A DNA stretch of 64,000 nt, from positions 13,497 to 77,496 of the IMG/VR virus record IMGVR_UViG_3300037067_013379; one strand, given 5' to 3'. This document shows, piece after piece, positions 5,234 to 11,104 of the stretch (positions are counted from its first letter, which is position 1; each line of letters starts with the position of its first letter). Origin of the DNA: a virus. Taxonomy: Duplodnaviria; Caudoviricetes. A program made the position numbers and the translations under genes. The notes below the pieces were generated by a model, which had not been told where the DNA came from, did no database searches, and saw only the letters and a program-made list of their open reading frames with translations.

Positions 5234-7254
5234 TGATAGGTATCCGGCGTAGGAAGCGGCAGCTACGGGCGGTCAGCGAGGCGGACCCAGTCCTCCGCGC
5301 AGAGATCGATGGGCTGTTCTCGCCCCCGGTCCTGTGGCGGTTCCGGGGGGCCGACACCACCACGGCCCGGTTCCGGGAGATCATGACGGCGTCGGCGCGT
5401 CGCGCTATCGGTGACGGGCCGGCCGGTCGGTCGGTGACAGCGGCCGTGTCGCGCCTGTCGATGGACGGCGCGTCGTGGCGCTCGTACCGATTCGGCGATC
5501 GGGCGTGGCAGACGGACGCGTGGCGTTTGTACGACATCACCGGACAGTTGAGGTTCGTTGCGAACTGGGTCGGTAACTCCGTCTCGCGCTGCAACCTGTA
5601 CGTCGCCAAGGCCAAACCGGACGGGTCCCCCGGCGAACGCGTCGAAACCGGTCCGGTAGCGGAACTCGCCTCCGGGCCGCTCGGTACCGGAGACGCGAAG
5701 GCCGAGGCACTGCGCCTCCTCGGAATCGACCTATTCGTTCCCGGCGAGGCGTACGTGGTAGCCCAGTCCGGGGGCGGGGAGGACGGCGAAGACCTCTGGT
5801 GGGTCGTCACATCGAGGCAGATCAAACGACAGGGCGACACGATCACGGTCAGCCGTTCCCCGGTGCACGGGGGCGGGACCATGGAGTACCGCGAGGGCAT
5901 CGACCTGATCCTCCGGGTGTGGACACCGCACCCGGCCGACACGTCCGAACCCGACTCGGCGACCCGGTCCGCGATCCCGGACCTCCGCGAGATGGAGGCG
6001 CTGCGGAAACGCGAGTTCGCCGAGTTGGACTCCCGGCTGTCCGGGGCCGGCGTGTTCGCGATCCCCGAATCGTTGGAACTCCCCCGGGGAGACGACGACC
6101 CGGCCGGGGCCGCTGGGTTCTCCGCGCTCCTCGGCCGGGTCATGTCCCGGTCGTTGCGGGACCGGTCGTCAGCCGAGGCCATGGTGCCGATCATCATCAC
6201 CGGCCCCGGCGACGATATCGAGAAGATCCGACACATCACACTCTGGTCGGAACTGTCCGAACAGATTGGGACGATGCGGGAAGGCGCCCTCCGGTCCCTC
6301 GCCCAGTCGCTGGACATCCCGCCCGAGGTCCTGATCGGGTTGGGTTCGTCGACGAACCACTGGAACGCCTGGGCGATCAGCCGCGAGGCCGTACAGATCC
6401 ACATCAAACCGGTGTTGACCCGCATCGCAGCGGCCCTCACCACCGGCTACCTCGCACCCGCGCTCGAAGCGATGGGCGAGGACCCGAACGGCTACCTCTA
6501 CGCGTTCGACACCTCGCCATTGACCACGAACCCCGACCGTTCCGGGGACGCCAAGGACCTCCACGACCGTATGCTGTTGTCAGACGCCGTAACCCGGGCC
6601 GCGTCGTCGTGGTCCGACGGGGACGCCCCCTCCCCAACCGAGCGCTCCGTGCGACTCGTCGAGAAACTCCTCCTCACGTCCCCCGACGCGGTCCTGTCCG
6701 ACCCGACCCTCCGGGCGCTGATCGGACTACCCGAGGCCCAAACGGTCGCGGCACCGGCCCCCACAACCCCCACGGGCACGGAGGAGACACCGCCCCCCGT
6801 CGAGGAGGAGGAAACCCTCCCCGAAGAAACCGAGGTCGAGGAGGAGGAGGGCGGAGAGGGCCAGGGGCCGCCACCGGCCGGACCACCCACGGCACCACCT
6901 GGATTGTCGTTCGCGGCACAGTTGGCGATCCGACGGGCGCTCGGCCTCGCCGGAACCCGCCTCGTCCCGCACTCGAAACGGCCGACCGGGGTACCCGCCT
7001 ACCAGTTGCACGTTCATCACGGGCCGGTGGTCGGATCACAGAAGATCGCGACGTTCCTCGCCGGATCCTGGCGGGACGAGTTCGCGGGGGTCGGATCGGC
7101 GTTCGGGGTAGACGACCGGTTGTTCGTCGCGCTGGTCGAGGAGCACTGCCGTGACCTGTTGGTCCGTGGAATCGCCTATGACCCCGTCGACGTCGATACC
7201 CTGTTCGCGGCCCCGGCGACCATCAACCGGCTACGGGTGATCTCCTGTGGATGA
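5230..7254 (+). CDS. Portal protein
   Basis: Lies between terL and MuF. WQTDAWRLYDITGQLRF..W and IPIII/LDIPPEVL segments resemble actinophage portals. Acidic, Pro-rich C-terminal tail. Confidence 0.8.
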   Translation: MMIGIRRRKRQLRAVSEADPVLRAEIDGLFSPPVLWRFRGADTTTARFREIMTASARRAIGDGPAGRSVTAAVSRLSMDGASWRSYRFGDRAWQTDAWRLYDITGQLRFVANWVGNSVSRCNLYVAKAKPDGSPGERVETGPVAELASGPLGTGDAKAEALRLLGIDLFVPGEAYVVAQSGGGEDGEDLWWVVTSRQIKRQGDTITVSRSPVHGGGTMEYREGIDLILRVWTPHPADTSEPDSATRSAIPDLREMEALRKREFAELDSRLSGAGVFAIPESLELPRGDDDPAGAAGFSALLGRVMSRSLRDRSSAEAMVPIIITGPGDDIEKIRHITLWSELSEQIGTMREGALRSLAQSLDIPPEVLIGLGSSTNHWNAWAISREAVQIHIKPVLTRIAAALTTGYLAPALEAMGEDPNGYLYAFDTSPLTTNPDRSGDAKDLHDRMLLSDAVTRAASSWSDGDAPSPTERSVRLVEKLLLTSPDAVLSDPTLRALIGLPEAQTVAAPAPTTPTGTEETPPPVEEEETLPEETEVEEEEGGEGQGPPPAGPPTAPPGLSFAAQLAIRRALGLAGTRLVPHSKRPTGVPAYQLHVHHGPVVGSQKIATFLAGSWRDEFAGVGSAFGVDDRLFVALVEEHCRDLLVRGIAYDPVDVDTLFAAPATINRLRVISCG

Positions 7255-9190
7255 CATGTGGTCGTTGGAGTACGCCCGGACCGTGCCGGGTGCGATGGTC
7301 AACGCGGTTGGGGACGTGTTCTACCCGGACGGCCCCGAGGACGCGGCGTGGTTCGCGGTAGAGCACGAAGCGTGGGTGATCACCGGCGCTGACACGGGGC
7401 CGGTGTGGGACGGCGAGGGAACCGACCCGTGGCTGGTTCCCCGGATGGAGGCAGCGGCGGAGGCCGCCGTGGCGGAGGCCGCGATCCGTGAGGCCCTGTG
7501 GGTCGAGTTGTCTGGGTGGCTGGTGACGGTGTCCCGCGCGGTCCTCCACACGGCGCTCCCCGACCCGTTGGCCGTGTTCTCGAAGTCCCCAGCGTGGGCT
7601 GCCGCCGTGGACCGGGTCGTTCGGGGTCCGGTCCGGGACGCGGTCGGTGCGGCCTACCAGACACTGCTGGGACCCGGGTTCCGATTCGATTCGCGTCCGG
7701 CCGTGGTCGAGCACCTGGCGACGGTGTCCAACCGGATGGTTCGCACCGTGGACTCGACGTTTGATCTCGTCGCCCGGCAGGTGTCGATCGGGGCGAACCT
7801 CGGCGAAAGCGCGGCGGAGATCGCGGACCGGGTCGACGGGGTGTTGTCGACCACCCGCACGGAGCGCTGGCCGAACCGGGCGACCGTGGTCGCGCGGACG
7901 GAGACGATGGGGGCGTTGAACGCCGGCCGGCAGGATGCGTTCGCGGCCGTGGCGGAGGAGTTGGCGAAGCCGTTCGAGCAGATGTGGGTGGCGACGATGG
8001 ACAAGCGGGTTCGCCACACCCACCGGCGCGCGGACGGGCAGCGGGTACCGACGGGGCAGCCGTTCATCGTTGGTGGCGCGTCGCTGCGGTTCCCCGGCGA
8101 CCCCATGGGACCGGGCAAAGAGGTCATACAGTGTCTACCGGGAACTACCATGGTCGACTATCGGGCTATACGTTCCGTTATGAGACGTTGGTACGACGGT
8201 GATGTTGTCACGATCCGGTTTGCCAGTGGCGACGATCTCACCATTACACCGAATCACCCGGTATTGCGGGCCGATGGGAGATGGGTTTCCGCTGGTCTCC
8301 TCAACGAAGGAGATCACTGCGTTCGCTGTGGTTTCCGTCGGGACGATTCCGGAGCACCAGACGAAGATGGTGGACCATCCGAGATCGGCGAGGTCTACCG
8401 TTCGGCGTGCGAGTACCAGACGGCGAATCGGATAGCCCTCTCCCCACCAGACCTCCACGGCGACGCGCCCAATGGCGAGGTCGATGTTGTAGCCGTACAC
8501 GGCGGTTTGCGTTTCGACGGTGATCCCGCACGCGAGGAGGAGATCGACAAGTTCGGCCTCACCCTTGCCGACTTTGCGTGTTCGTGTCGTGGCGGTACTG
8601 ATGGTGGGTTGTTCACGGTCAGGATTCCTCTTAGCGAATCTGACGCCGGACTTGCGTCGTTCGGCGTTCGCCGGTGCCGTGAGGAGACGGCGGGCCTCGA
8701 CGTCGGTTCGTCCCATTCTGATTCTGTTGGCCTCACTTCTGGTACGGATGGTGATTCCAGCGGCCTTGAGACGACGGATGATGGTCGGTCGACTAACACC
8801 GGTTGCTGCCGCGATCGCGAGGACGCTGTCGCCGTTGTTGTATCGGGCGATCACGTCGGCCGTGTCGATGTTGACGCCCGTGGCGAGTCGTCCGGCTTCG
8901 GACGCGGTTCGGATTCTGGTACCTACGGCCCGGAGGTTCTTGGTGATGGTGTCCGGGGTGTATCCGAGTTCGGTTGCGAGTTCGACGGTGCTGGCACCGT
9001 TTTCGTAACGACGTCGGAGATCGTTTCGATCGATCGGCACGCGTTCGCGGGTCATGTGTTCAACCTCGACACTGGAGTTGGGTGGTACACCGCCAATTGT
9101 ATACCAGTAAGAAATTGCCGGTGCACCACGATCCTTTTGGAACCGGGGGAGAATGTTGATCTCACGCATCGTCAGTTCAAGAATCACTAG
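7247..9190 (+). CDS. MuF-like head morphogenesis (minor capsid) protein containing an intein
   Basis: RATVVARTET, WVATMDKRVRHTH and LRFPGDP..EVIQ|C...N|CRC are MuF signatures, split by an intein. Confidence 0.88.
   Translation: MDDMWSLEYARTVPGAMVNAVGDVFYPDGPEDAAWFAVEHEAWVITGADTGPVWDGEGTDPWLVPRMEAAAEAAVAEAAIREALWVELSGWLVTVSRAVLHTALPDPLAVFSKSPAWAAAVDRVVRGPVRDAVGAAYQTLLGPGFRFDSRPAVVEHLATVSNRMVRTVDSTFDLVARQVSIGANLGESAAEIADRVDGVLSTTRTERWPNRATVVARTETMGALNAGRQDAFAAVAEELAKPFEQMWVATMDKRVRHTHRRADGQRVPTGQPFIVGGASLRFPGDPMGPGKEVIQCLPGTTMVDYRAIRSVMRRWYDGDVVTIRFASGDDLTITPNHPVLRADGRWVSAGLLNEGDHCVRCGFRRDDSGAPDEDGGPSEIGEVYRSACEYQTANRIALSPPDLHGDAPNGEVDVVAVHGGLRFDGDPAREEEIDKFGLTLADFACSCRGGTDGGLFTVRIPLSESDAGLASFGVRRCREETAGLDVGSSHSDSVGLTSGTDGDSSGLETTDDGRSTNTGCCRDREDAVAVVVSGDHVGRVDVDARGESSGFGRGSDSGTYGPEVLGDGVRGVSEFGCEFDGAGTVFVTTSEIVSIDRHAFAGHVFNLDTGVGWYTANCIPVRNCRCTTILLEPGENVDLTHRQFKNH
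8132..9115 (+). mobile_element. Intein (328 aa) in MuF
   Basis: Starts CLPGTT, has block B TPNHP, and ends VFNLDT..WYTAN.IPVRN followed by Cys+1. Removing it restores EVIQ-CRC. Confidence 0.88.
8135..9055 (-). CDS. HTH-repeat + Vsr/DUF559-like PD-(D/E)xK endonuclease, encoded antisense inside the intein
   Basis: ATG at 9055 follows GAGGT. Two HTH-like repeats (STVELATELGYTPDTI; SVLAIAAATGVSRPTIIRRL) precede GEAEL..ETQ..YNIDLAIGRVAVEV..LADLGWSTIFVW. Confidence 0.75.
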   Translation of the reverse strand: MTRERVPIDRNDLRRRYENGASTVELATELGYTPDTITKNLRAVGTRIRTASEAGRLATGVNIDTADVIARYNNGDSVLAIAAATGVSRPTIIRRLKAAGITIRTRSEANRIRMGRTDVEARRLLTAPANAERRKSGVRFAKRNPDREQPTISTATTRTRKVGKGEAELVDLLLACGITVETQTAVYGYNIDLAIGRVAVEVWWGEGYPIRRLVLARRTVDLADLGWSTIFVWCSGIVPTETTANAVISFVEETSGNPSPIGPQYRVIRCNGEIVATGKPDRDNITVVPTSHNGTYSPIVDHGSSR

Positions 9191-9205
9191 CGTTAGGGGC
9201 TAGGT

Positions 9206-11104
9206 ATGGGTACCGGATGGCGGGGCATGCTCGCCCCCCTCGACGTGTCCACCGGGGACGGCCGGCGTTTCCTGTCGTCCGGGGTGTCGTCACGGCAGTT
9301 GCCGTTGCCGTTGAAGTGGCAACGGGCGGACACCGAGGGTCATGACAACTCGGTGATCGTCGGATCGTTGGAACGGATCGAGTACGGGACGGTCGCGGAG
9401 GCGATCGACGCGGGATGGATCGACGCGAAATGTGTCAAACCATCCAAGTTCTCGAAGGACCTGCGCGCAGCGTGGGGATTCGGACAGATGTTCGACGACA
9501 TCAACCCCAACGACATGCCTCGCCTCCACGAGGACGTCATGGAGTCGAAACACCTCCTCGGCCAACAGGTCATCGGACCGTCGGTCGACGCGGGATCCTG
9601 CGAGGCCGTGATCGCCCTCAAGGGATCCGACGAGGCCCTCACCGAGGAGCAGTTCGACGAACTGTTCTGGGGCGAGGGATCGGAAGACGTCGAACTCGAA
9701 CTCCTGTTCACCGAGTACCAGATCGCGGCAGCGACGTTGGTTCCCATCCCGGCGTTCGCCGAGTGCCGGCCGTTCCAGTTGCTCGCCGAGGAGACGATCA
9801 CAGCCGCTGTCCGGAAGACCGGCTGGTCCGACATGCCCCTCGCCGAACGTGACATGGCTTGGGACGGCACGGCCGCCGAGAAGCGGATCGCCGATAACGC
9901 CGGCATCGGGGGCGACAACCCCGACTGGGGCCGGTACGCGCAGGCGTTCCTCTACCAGAACGACGACGCGAACCCCGAGACCAAGGGGGCGTACGGTTTC
10001 CAGATCGCGGACATGGTCGACGGAACCCAGCGAATCATCCCCCGGGCCGTGTTCGCCGTTGCCGGCGTTCTCCAGGGCGCCCGTGGTGGAACCACGATCC
10101 CCCAGGCAGACCAGGACGCCATGAAGGGTGTGGTCGAGGGGTTGTACAACCGGATGGCGGACGAGTTCCAGGACGACACGATCGTTGTTCCGTGGGCGGA
10201 GGAGACCGCGTCACTCATCGCGGCCGTCACAGCCGCTGCCGGCGTGGCGCTCGGCTACGACCCGGCCCTGTTCGACAACCCGAACCTCAACACCATCACC
10301 CCGATCACGGTCACCGACGACGGCCGGGTGTTCGGACACGTAGCGACCCACGACGTGTGCCACGTTGGCATGCCCGGGATGTGCACCACGGCCCCCGTCG
10401 ACGACGACGGGTACGCGATGTTCCACCGGTACCGGCCGGAGGGTTTCCCCGTCCCGGTCGGCCGGATCACCACCGGGGGCGGGAAGTTCGGCTGCACCTG
10501 CCGGCAGTGCGCGGGAAGGAACGACGACCACGCGTGCCTCAAACTGTCGCTCGGTGGGGCGATCGCACACCACGACCGGCTGTCGACCGTCGCCTGGGTG
10601 CGTGCCGGGGAGGACACCCGGTTGAACGCCGTGTGGGTCTCCGGGGTCGCGAATCCGGCCGCGTCGGTCGAGGACCTCGCCGCGTTGTCCCGGCAGAAGG
10701 TGTCGGGTGACTGGCGACCAACCGGGGGGAAACCGGAACTCGTCGAGATCCTCGCCCTCGCCCGTGAGGAGCCGGGTTTCCCACTGCCACGGTTCCGGGT
10801 CGCGGCCGGGCAGGTTGCCGCGCTGACCGCCGCTGGTGTGGTACTACCGTCGGGGGGCGAGACGCCCGATGGGATGACCATCGATTACGAGCGGTTGGCG
10901 GACCTTCTCGCCGGGCGTCTCGCGTCCCATCTTCGCCCGGTGGTTCCCCCGGCCGGTGGAGACGAGACCGCCGTGACGGCCGCTGACACCACACCACCCA
11001 CCGTTGATGATGATGTTGTACCCGGCCTGCTCGGGGAGGTTGACGACGCGGTGAACGCCGGGGTCGCGATTCGTCTCCGGGCCGAACTCGACGAGGTGTT
11101 CTGA
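9206..11104 (+). CDS. Prohead/capsid assembly protein (putative capsid maturation protease)
   Basis: 632 aa, directly after MuF, with WRGMLAPLDVSTGDGRRF, RVFGHVA and VSGDWR segments typical of actinophage head-assembly genes. Confidence 0.65.
   Translation: MGTGWRGMLAPLDVSTGDGRRFLSSGVSSRQLPLPLKWQRADTEGHDNSVIVGSLERIEYGTVAEAIDAGWIDAKCVKPSKFSKDLRAAWGFGQMFDDINPNDMPRLHEDVMESKHLLGQQVIGPSVDAGSCEAVIALKGSDEALTEEQFDELFWGEGSEDVELELLFTEYQIAAATLVPIPAFAECRPFQLLAEETITAAVRKTGWSDMPLAERDMAWDGTAAEKRIADNAGIGGDNPDWGRYAQAFLYQNDDANPETKGAYGFQIADMVDGTQRIIPRAVFAVAGVLQGARGGTTIPQADQDAMKGVVEGLYNRMADEFQDDTIVVPWAEETASLIAAVTAAAGVALGYDPALFDNPNLNTITPITVTDDGRVFGHVATHDVCHVGMPGMCTTAPVDDDGYAMFHRYRPEGFPVPVGRITTGGGKFGCTCRQCAGRNDDHACLKLSLGGAIAHHDRLSTVAWVRAGEDTRLNAVWVSGVANPAASVEDLAALSRQKVSGDWRPTGGKPELVEILALAREEPGFPLPRFRVAAGQVAALTAAGVVLPSGGETPDGMTIDYERLADLLAGRLASHLRPVVPPAGGDETAVTAADTTPPTVDDDVVPGLLGEVDDAVNAGVAIRLRAELDEVF

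Follow-up and report, generated by a model that had tools for sequence, protein, structure and literature searches.

In a 64,000-nt stretch of an uncultured phage genome (hereafter the window, meaning the whole stretch; its source is the 77.5-kb IMG/VR virus record IMGVR_UViG_3300037067_013379), the gene for a MuF-like minor capsid or head morphogenesis protein (muF) is interrupted by an intein, and the opposite strand of this intein carries a second long open reading frame (ORF). It is probable that the insert is a mobile class-1 intein lodged immediately before the MuF CRC motif, and that its homing endonuclease is a separate gene, encoded on the opposite strand and nested within the intein in exact codon register. 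From this arrangement we infer that the minus strand is transcribed, that the precursor splices and that the nuclease cleaves its target and drives homing.

The muF precursor is listed as an ORF of 647 codons plus stop at 7247–9190 on the plus strand. Its product matches the Pfam family Phage_Mu_F (PF04233) at residues 175–274 of the 647 (E 3e-10; 41 bits versus a cut-off of 29.6) and, weakly, Intein_splicing. The boundaries of the insert can be given exactly because intein-free alleles of the same gene align gaplessly over the junction of ...KEVIQ and CRCTT.... Four such alleles from metagenomes (P0170, P0171, P0173 and P0175; 316–319 aa; 82–84% identical in alignment A2) match the 647-aa ORF from end to end, save for a single sharp gap, 328 residues long, that separates ...GPGKEVIQ and CRCTTILLE.... 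Subtracting 328 from 647 leaves 319 aa, which is the length of P0170, itself gapless over the junction. The plus strand thus divides into an N-extein at 7247–8131 (295 codons, ending in ...GPGKEVIQ), a class-1 intein at 8132–9115 (328 codons, running from Cys1 via TPNH and GHVFNLD to VRN) and a C-extein at 9116–9187 (24 codons), whose first residue is the +1 Cys in the CRC motif of MuF. Cys1 (TGT at 8132) and the block B motif TPNH (8246–8257) are both invariant in 12/12 aligned inteins, and the terminal Asn (AAT, 9113–9115) is followed directly by the +1 Cys codon TGC at 9116. These splicing ends and coordinates had been read from the window in an earlier note on this DNA, and the intein-free alleles bear them out to the residue. 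All 18 intein-bearing loci with a mapped junction share one site of insertion, between [N/Q] and C[R/K]C.

Composition sets the insert apart as well. The N-extein has a third-position G+C of 0.89, typical for genes of this phage; within the insert this value, which holds for the exteins, is lost and overall G+C falls from about 0.70 to 0.58–0.62, which marks the insert as foreign in composition. A muF gene in pieces, split or fractured as described by Dassa et al. (2009), was considered and rejected, as the plus frame runs continuously through the intein. When the whole gene was compared with the phage collection by megablast, no match was found, and relatives were reached only by protein-level searches.

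The plus-strand frame appears to encode a splicing domain with a gap in its middle. In a model built from an alignment of 12 homologous inteins, the predicted fold is the HINT fold of a class-1 intein, and confidence, given as pLDDT (predicted local distance difference test score), is high solely at residues 1–68 and 290–328. The first of these segments forms an N-terminal splicing lobe (8132–8335; pLDDT 72–93) that contains the block A Cys codon (8132–8134) and block B and in which C1, T39, P40, N41, H42 and P43 are invariant in the 12 inteins. The second forms a C-terminal splicing lobe (8999–9115; pLDDT 76–89) with the block F motif GHVFNLD at 9050–9070 and the terminal Asn, where G307, V309, T314, G317, W318, Y319 and N328 are likewise invariant. 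The intervening linker (residues 69–289; 8336–8998) is mostly at pLDDT below 50 and is predicted to be a largely disordered antisense passenger of the nuclease gene. Structural matching returned HINT proteins only, and neither structure prediction nor matching found an endonuclease fold in the plus-frame middle, in agreement with the impression in the earlier note that some 230 central residues resemble no homing endonuclease. As a separate observation, the entire plus-frame intein, including the middle that lies opposite the nuclease gene, matches phrog_15127, annotated as ‘head protein’ (E 1.6e-23; profile positions 244–574 of 602).

A confidently folded protein is found instead on the minus strand. 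The putative antisense homing-endonuclease gene occupies 8135–9055, with its ATG at 9055–9053, 306 codons and a TAG stop at 8137–8135, and shares its codon boundaries with the muF–intein frame. Residue numbers in the searches refer to a query (window:8138-9058) with one extra leading codon and are one above those of the real 306-aa protein. Modelled with AlphaFold from a 65-sequence alignment, the protein reaches a mean pLDDT of 87 and is predicted to consist of two three-helix helix-turn-helix (HTH) modules joined by a helical linker to a nuclease domain of alpha/beta type that extends to about residue 282 (query numbering). The HTH modules (8759–9037, minus strand; model helices 11–44 and 66–99, query numbering) are corroborated by four Pfam families above their cut-offs (HTH_58, HTH_38, HTH_23 and HTH_7) and by a profile match to the HTH-repeat protein 2lvs (E 1e-10). 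Foldseek gave the homing endonuclease I-Bth0305I (3r3p) as top match and Vsr second, consistent with a Vsr-type nuclease fold, and a profile search matched the DUF559-like structure 3hrl (E 3.6e-5). Folding both frames, a check that the earlier note had called for, thus yields the HTH-HTH-Vsr-like protein it had proposed on one strand and a mostly unfolded middle on the other. Membership in the DUF559 group does not follow: in Pfam, REase_MTES_1575 (PF18741) reached 16.6 bits against a cut-off of 38.2 and DUF559 itself gave no match, so that the nuclease has a related fold and is not a member. PHROGs holds no family for it, only weak HTH matches.

The nuclease domain itself (8222–8575, minus strand; of the Vsr-like EDxHD type) keeps every residue that is invariant or near-invariant in the family. 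E167 and D193, equated with Vsr E25 and D51 via the 3hrl profile alignment and the fold, are present in 63/65 and 64/65 family sequences, respectively, and in the window protein, where the conserved Glu and Asp lie at 8558–8560 and 8480–8482. E202, the first residue of the EVWWG motif (8453–8455), is invariant, and N191 and R219 are, like E167 and D193, near-invariant; all are found in the window. D225 is a candidate for the second Asp (Vsr D97, I-Bth0305I D222), an equivalence by alignment only; it is Asp in 40/65 sequences and Asn in 13/65. The earlier note had doubted the nuclease on account of EVWWG standing where EVDG is usual. EVWWG is indeed present, but the family consensus is VAVE-V-[H/F/W]-x-G and EVDG belongs to DUF559, which moves the doubt to a missing His discussed below.

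The family to which the nuclease belongs is large and, in the intein-bearing loci examined, nested in the same way. A tblastn search with the nuclease matched 124 phage records, with hosts including Gordonia, Mycobacterium, Salmonella (Jerseyviruses), Pseudomonas, Klebsiella, Vibrio, Edwardsiella, Acinetobacter and Aggregatibacter/Haemophilus, and in nine inspected records the match lies antisense to a gene annotated as MuF or head morphogenesis or to an unnamed gene of the head region. In a representative library, 2599 clusters were matched at E ≤ 1e-3 and 1142 at E ≤ 1e-10. Related loci were collected with a single-protein query, which supplied two, and with an 11-sequence alignment, which supplied 14. 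The MuF frame is open across the nuclease in exact register in 21/21 loci from phage records and metagenomes and in 3/4 further loci; altogether, the double open frame was present in register in all of the about 25 intein-bearing loci examined, down to a G+C of 0.42, and phages of Gordonia, Pseudomonas, Klebsiella, Vibrio, Edwardsiella, Salmonella and Aggregatibacter are among them. Conservation of the antisense ORF among homologous inteins, whose lack would have told against the idea put forward in the earlier note, is therefore what was found.

Several points weigh against the arrangement proposed here, the first of which is statistical. An antisense stop in this register can arise only opposite TTA, CTA or TCA, codons that high-GC DNA seldom uses. 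Given the codon usage of the phage itself, either frame would stay open over the about 300 codons concerned with a chance of about 0.08–0.12, so that for this high-GC window alone a double open frame is not improbable (about 0.1). One might hence argue that the antisense ORF is a chance open frame in high-GC DNA and that the intein contains a degenerate, unrecognisable in-frame endonuclease. Because the window alone gives a chance of about 0.1, the case for dual coding rests on the family, and there the figures are of another order: the chance of finding both frames open is 3e-6 to 2e-9 in phage Aaphi23 (GC 0.42) and 1e-4 to 1e-5 in locus L020 (GC 0.51–0.53). The figures relied on are those for the window, where known genes were chosen as reference, and for the low-GC loci; for several high-GC loci, the reference codon usage came from long minus-strand ORFs that possibly include spurious frames. 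The HTH families, the confident Vsr-like fold, the 1142 clusters and a plus-frame middle that is predicted to be disordered and evolves faster than the minus frame argue in the same direction, and we give a chance origin of the ORF almost no credence.

The other points concern activity and expression. The penultimate His of the intein is replaced by Arg, as the earlier note had pointed out with some doubt about splicing. Relatives have R, K, S or H at this position, so that Arg is a family trait, which softens the doubt and does not remove it, splicing being predicted. On the nuclease side, the subfamily of the window has W204 and Y209 at the positions equated with His64 and His69 of Vsr; across the wider family, His is found at each of the two more often than any other residue (21 and 29 of 65, respectively). 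The catalytic His (Vsr H69, I-Bth0305I H213) is accordingly absent from the window protein, its equivalence with position 209 being drawn from alignment, not from superposed structures. Additionally, one relative (L014:2384-3373, plus strand) carries an in-frame stop in the first HTH (RRRYEAGQ-stop-TPAIAK) and a MuF–intein frame that is uninterrupted over 615 aa; the nuclease could be at an early stage of decay or restart downstream, or the stop could come from an error in the assembly. As for expression, a consensus scan of 7900–9500 found no full sigma-70 promoter on either strand, a result that says little for an actinophage, and the sole match in RNA libraries consists of unstranded contigs from a relative about 96% identical. 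The latter came from sediment metatranscriptome run X10, whose contigs correspond to window 7929–9148 and bridge the extein–intein junction; contigs carry no information on strand or expression. The 7929–9148 stretch is also present in metagenomes of several studies, from wastewater, groundwater and landfill.

These observations leave room for a reading in which the intein is real and the antisense protein has lost its nuclease activity, being either in decay or domesticated as a DNA-binding protein, with the intein now inherited vertically. The missing His residues and the L014 stop would suit it—the latter, found with the intein frame still open, implies that the nuclease can decay—and so would the vertical inheritance reported for some VSR-type inteins (Gosselin et al., bioRxiv 10.1101/2025.01.02.630785). 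However, the window and its 10 closest relatives all have Tyr at position 209, compared with His 29/65, Asn 12 and Tyr 11 in the wider family, and Y209-P210 is invariant among these 11 closest relatives, which argues for selection over decay. Tyr at 209 thus looks selected; whether it supports catalysis is uncertain, and nuclease activity is on that account only predicted. The way in which the inteins of the window and of the loci L006 and L007 differ from one another also speaks against decay. All three are exactly 984 nt long and free of indels, yet they differ at up to 50% of residues. Comparing these three inteins by codon position, differences across the middle (intein codons 67–290) concentrate at plus-strand position 1, which is the wobble position of the minus strand, so that the minus frame is the better kept (19–26% divergence versus 37–46% for the plus frame, window versus L006). 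At the ends (codons 1–22 and 291–328), differences fall at plus position 3 and the plus frame is the better kept. Codons 23–66 differ equally at positions 1 and 3 and almost never at position 2 (2 of 44), suggesting that both frames are constrained there. Together with the variable presence of the intein among MuF alleles that are 82–90% identical, this makes an inactive nuclease quite unlikely.

An active nuclease nested in this way would share essential elements of its gene with the splicing blocks themselves. On the opposite strand, the His codon of block F (CAT, 9053–9055) reads as the nuclease ATG; relatives use ATG or GTG, matching CAT or CAC. The ribosome-binding site that the earlier note had assigned to the ORF can be made out as a predicted Shine–Dalgarno-like GAGG (9064–9067, minus strand) 8 nt upstream of the ATG and antisense to the Asn311–Leu312 codons of block F, with GAGG or GAGA at the corresponding spot in 13/15 loci. 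A candidate, unproven −10 hexamer, TACAAT (9096–9101, minus strand), lies 40 nt upstream of the ATG, antisense to the Asn-Cys-Ile codons of block G, and most relatives have a hexamer of the TAnnnT type at this position. At the other end, the stop codon TAG is the reverse complement of intein codon 2, CTA, and so adjoins the start of the intein just as had been noticed before; in relatives it falls between intein residue 2 and about residue 14. Between the two, a conserved strand of the nuclease, YRV[I/V]R, is the reverse of block B PNHP[V/I] (in the window, YRVIR at 8263–8249 on the minus strand against PNHPV at 8249–8263 on the plus strand). In total, about 66 nuclease codons (8138–8335) lie over the N-terminal lobe, close to the about 65 estimated earlier, and about 19 more (8999–9055) over the C-terminal lobe. 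At the core of this overlap (8222–8335), the codons for folded strands of the intein N-lobe are predicted to encode also a folded C-terminal helix and beta-hairpin of the nuclease, both models being confident.

The overlap raises the question as to whether the dual coding is more than nominal, i.e. whether the last about 65 nuclease codons are mere read-through with no role in the enzyme and the conservation of YRVIR is a shadow of block B. Such shadows do occur, and in both directions, as is clearest in the reverse one, where plus-frame LSPPDLHGD mirrors VAVEVWWGE; conservation alone is therefore no proof of a functional nuclease tail. The last 21 residues (287–307, query numbering; 8138–8200, minus strand), which overlie intein residues 3–23 just past block A, are predicted to be disordered (pLDDT below 50). 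The drift of the stop between intein residues 2 and 14 also fits with a dispensable end, as does the fact that 3hrl and I-Bth0305I stop short of the hairpin. Against this, residues 242–282 are modelled at pLDDT 85–98, the Vsr alignment extends to residue 279 (query numbering) and a homologue in Acinetobacter phage vB_AbaM_IME285 keeps a similar C-terminal stretch (GYFKVLTIRS...) with no intein on its other strand. Moreover, intein-frame wobble divergence decreases from 0.66 in codons 1–14, past most nuclease stops, via 0.53 in codons 15–24 to 0.43 in codons 25–66, which lie under the folded nuclease C-terminus (55 pairs from 11 inteins; not a formal test). An extein control was aligned ungapped from the junction and proved misaligned in several loci, and its numbers were not used. 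The drop is suggestive, being the mark that a second constraint on shared codons would be expected to leave in the sequences. A purely nominal overlap is on balance unlikely, and a real role for residues 242–282 of the nuclease is favoured by the confident model, the Vsr alignment and the IME285 homologue.

Several relatives bear on the mobility of the element. Intein-free MuF alleles close to that of the window exist, the nearest (P0170, locus L024) being 88.5% identical in nucleotide sequence across the exteins. Comparing the window (8971–9190) with L024, identity in the exteins falls from about 0.9 to 0.73 in the 60-nt segment around the insertion site (CRCTTILLEP versus CRCSLILLES), which could be either a cleavage-resistant variant of the target or the edge of a co-conversion tract. 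Intein-free joints were not found in four sequencing runs, all of them in the form of contigs. Two close relatives, the loci L006 and L007, carry the MuF intein plus a second intein between ARTE and TMGALN, a site that is uninterrupted in the window. This second intein (L006:4327-5307, plus strand, in a MuF gene at L006:2980-5991, minus strand; L007:4354-5334) has a paralogous antisense HTH-Vsr ORF of its own, 326 aa long and with an EIWF motif. The MuF precursor, 1003 aa long, escaped the gene caller, which listed the two antisense ORFs instead.

The Acinetobacter phage IME285 offers a glimpse of the nuclease outside an intein. Here, a free-standing homologue (29.5% identity, E 1e-15) is convergent with an intact, intein-free muF, the two genes overlapping by 7 nt (L029:413-1348, plus strand; L029:1342-2118, minus strand). 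The MuF protein of this phage is 258 aa long, uninterrupted and ends in ...PM followed by CKCRAK. As in the window, the nuclease is of the same family and on the strand opposite muF, and the IME285 copy abuts the CKC end; unlike in the window, there is no intein, muF is whole and the nuclease lies downstream of it. A nuclease next to an intein-free muF fits with a nuclease that targets muF, and the sequences are consistent with a history in which an intein residing at the MuF CRC region captured, in reverse orientation, a nuclease family directed at that region. The IME285 arrangement may represent the ancestral, un-nested state, capture of a free-standing nuclease by an intein being the route proposed by Gosselin et al. 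(bioRxiv 10.1101/2025.01.02.630785).

If the window does hold a mobile intein with its homing endonuclease on the opposite strand, the element would work as follows. A late plus-strand message would be translated through all 328 intein codons. Intein residues 1–68 and 290–328 would fold as a HINT domain and the roughly 220 residues between them would be tolerated as a largely disordered linker, after which splicing via Cys1, TPNH, the terminal Asn and the +1 Cys would release the 319-aa MuF. A transcript of the minus strand, meanwhile, would give rise to the 306-aa protein with its two HTH modules and Vsr-like nuclease, the start codon, ribosome-binding site and possibly −10 element of which would be made of block F and block G codons. 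This nuclease would cut intein-free muF near the junction of ...EVIQ and CRC..., and repair from an intein-bearing copy would move intein and nuclease together.

The architecture as such has already been described: a 2025 preprint by Gosselin, Arsenault and Gogarten reports full inteins with antisense VSR-like endonucleases in actinophages, and its supplementary table lists the entry ‘minor capsid, MuF-like ... VSR -1 ORF’ for Malisha gp5, Vivi2 gp14, Angelicage gp15, Affeca gp15 and Fosterous gp12 (bioRxiv 10.1101/2025.01.02.630785). The expectation in the earlier note that such out-of-frame nucleases are known from actinophages, and hence rare rather than new, was well founded. The same five phages are the top phage matches of the window nuclease (tblastn E 1e-32 to 1e-21), and the window shares with their inteins a MuF-like minor capsid extein and a Vsr-like ORF in frame −1 inside the intein. 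It differs from them in coming from an uncultured IMG/VR phage and in that only about one third of the nuclease residues are shared. Furthermore, the preprint, which is confined to actinophages, places such ORFs typically outside the splicing domain, whereas the ORF spans block F to block A here as well as in all relatives checked. The window therefore contributes one more case together with some anatomy; the principle itself is not new. Novelty may lie in the interlock with the splicing blocks and in the spread to phages of Gammaproteobacteria, Salmonella Jerseyviruses and Aaphi23 among them. Open-access papers and bioRxiv yielded no description of a MuF intein with antisense Vsr in Gammaproteobacteria phages, of systematic overlap with splicing blocks or of a free-standing relative beside an intein-free muF.

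Other known systems resemble the window in part. I-Bth0305I and the EDxHD family of Vsr-like homing endonucleases reside in a group I intron or stand free between the halves of a split intein (Taylor et al. 2011, PMC3239194; Dassa et al. 2009, PMC2677866), whereas the gene in the window is antisense inside a contiguous intein; the His of this family is Tyr in the window, and the relation is detectable by fold only. Antisense LAGLIDADG endonucleases in the inteins of Synechocystis DnaX and a Chloroflexus SpoVR-like protein (Gorbalenya 1998, Gogarten et al. 2002, both as cited by Gosselin et al.) are likewise read from the opposite strand and, as far as their description there allows a comparison, differ from the window in nuclease superfamily and exteins.

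More generally, the window suggests that an intein and its homing nuclease can be opposite-strand genes on common codons, with about 85 codons predicted to lie in structured parts of both. For the question of how inteins acquire endonucleases, it points to capture of a free-standing nuclease that already targeted the same gene, which fits with a ‘splicing first’ origin. There is a practical side, too: gene callers usually annotate only one frame of the two, and the antisense shadow ends up in profile families such as phrog_15127. The interlock is found at the MuF site, between [N/Q] and C[R/K]C, in phages of both Actinobacteria and Gammaproteobacteria, and the nuclease family comprises over a thousand 50%-identity clusters, most of them unchecked for an intein. 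Whether the nested form is one ancient, obligately interlocked element, and as such among the largest and oldest antisense dual-coding gene families in phages, is to our minds evenly balanced. If it is, the element would provide a natural system in which to study the co-evolution of two folded domains on common codons.

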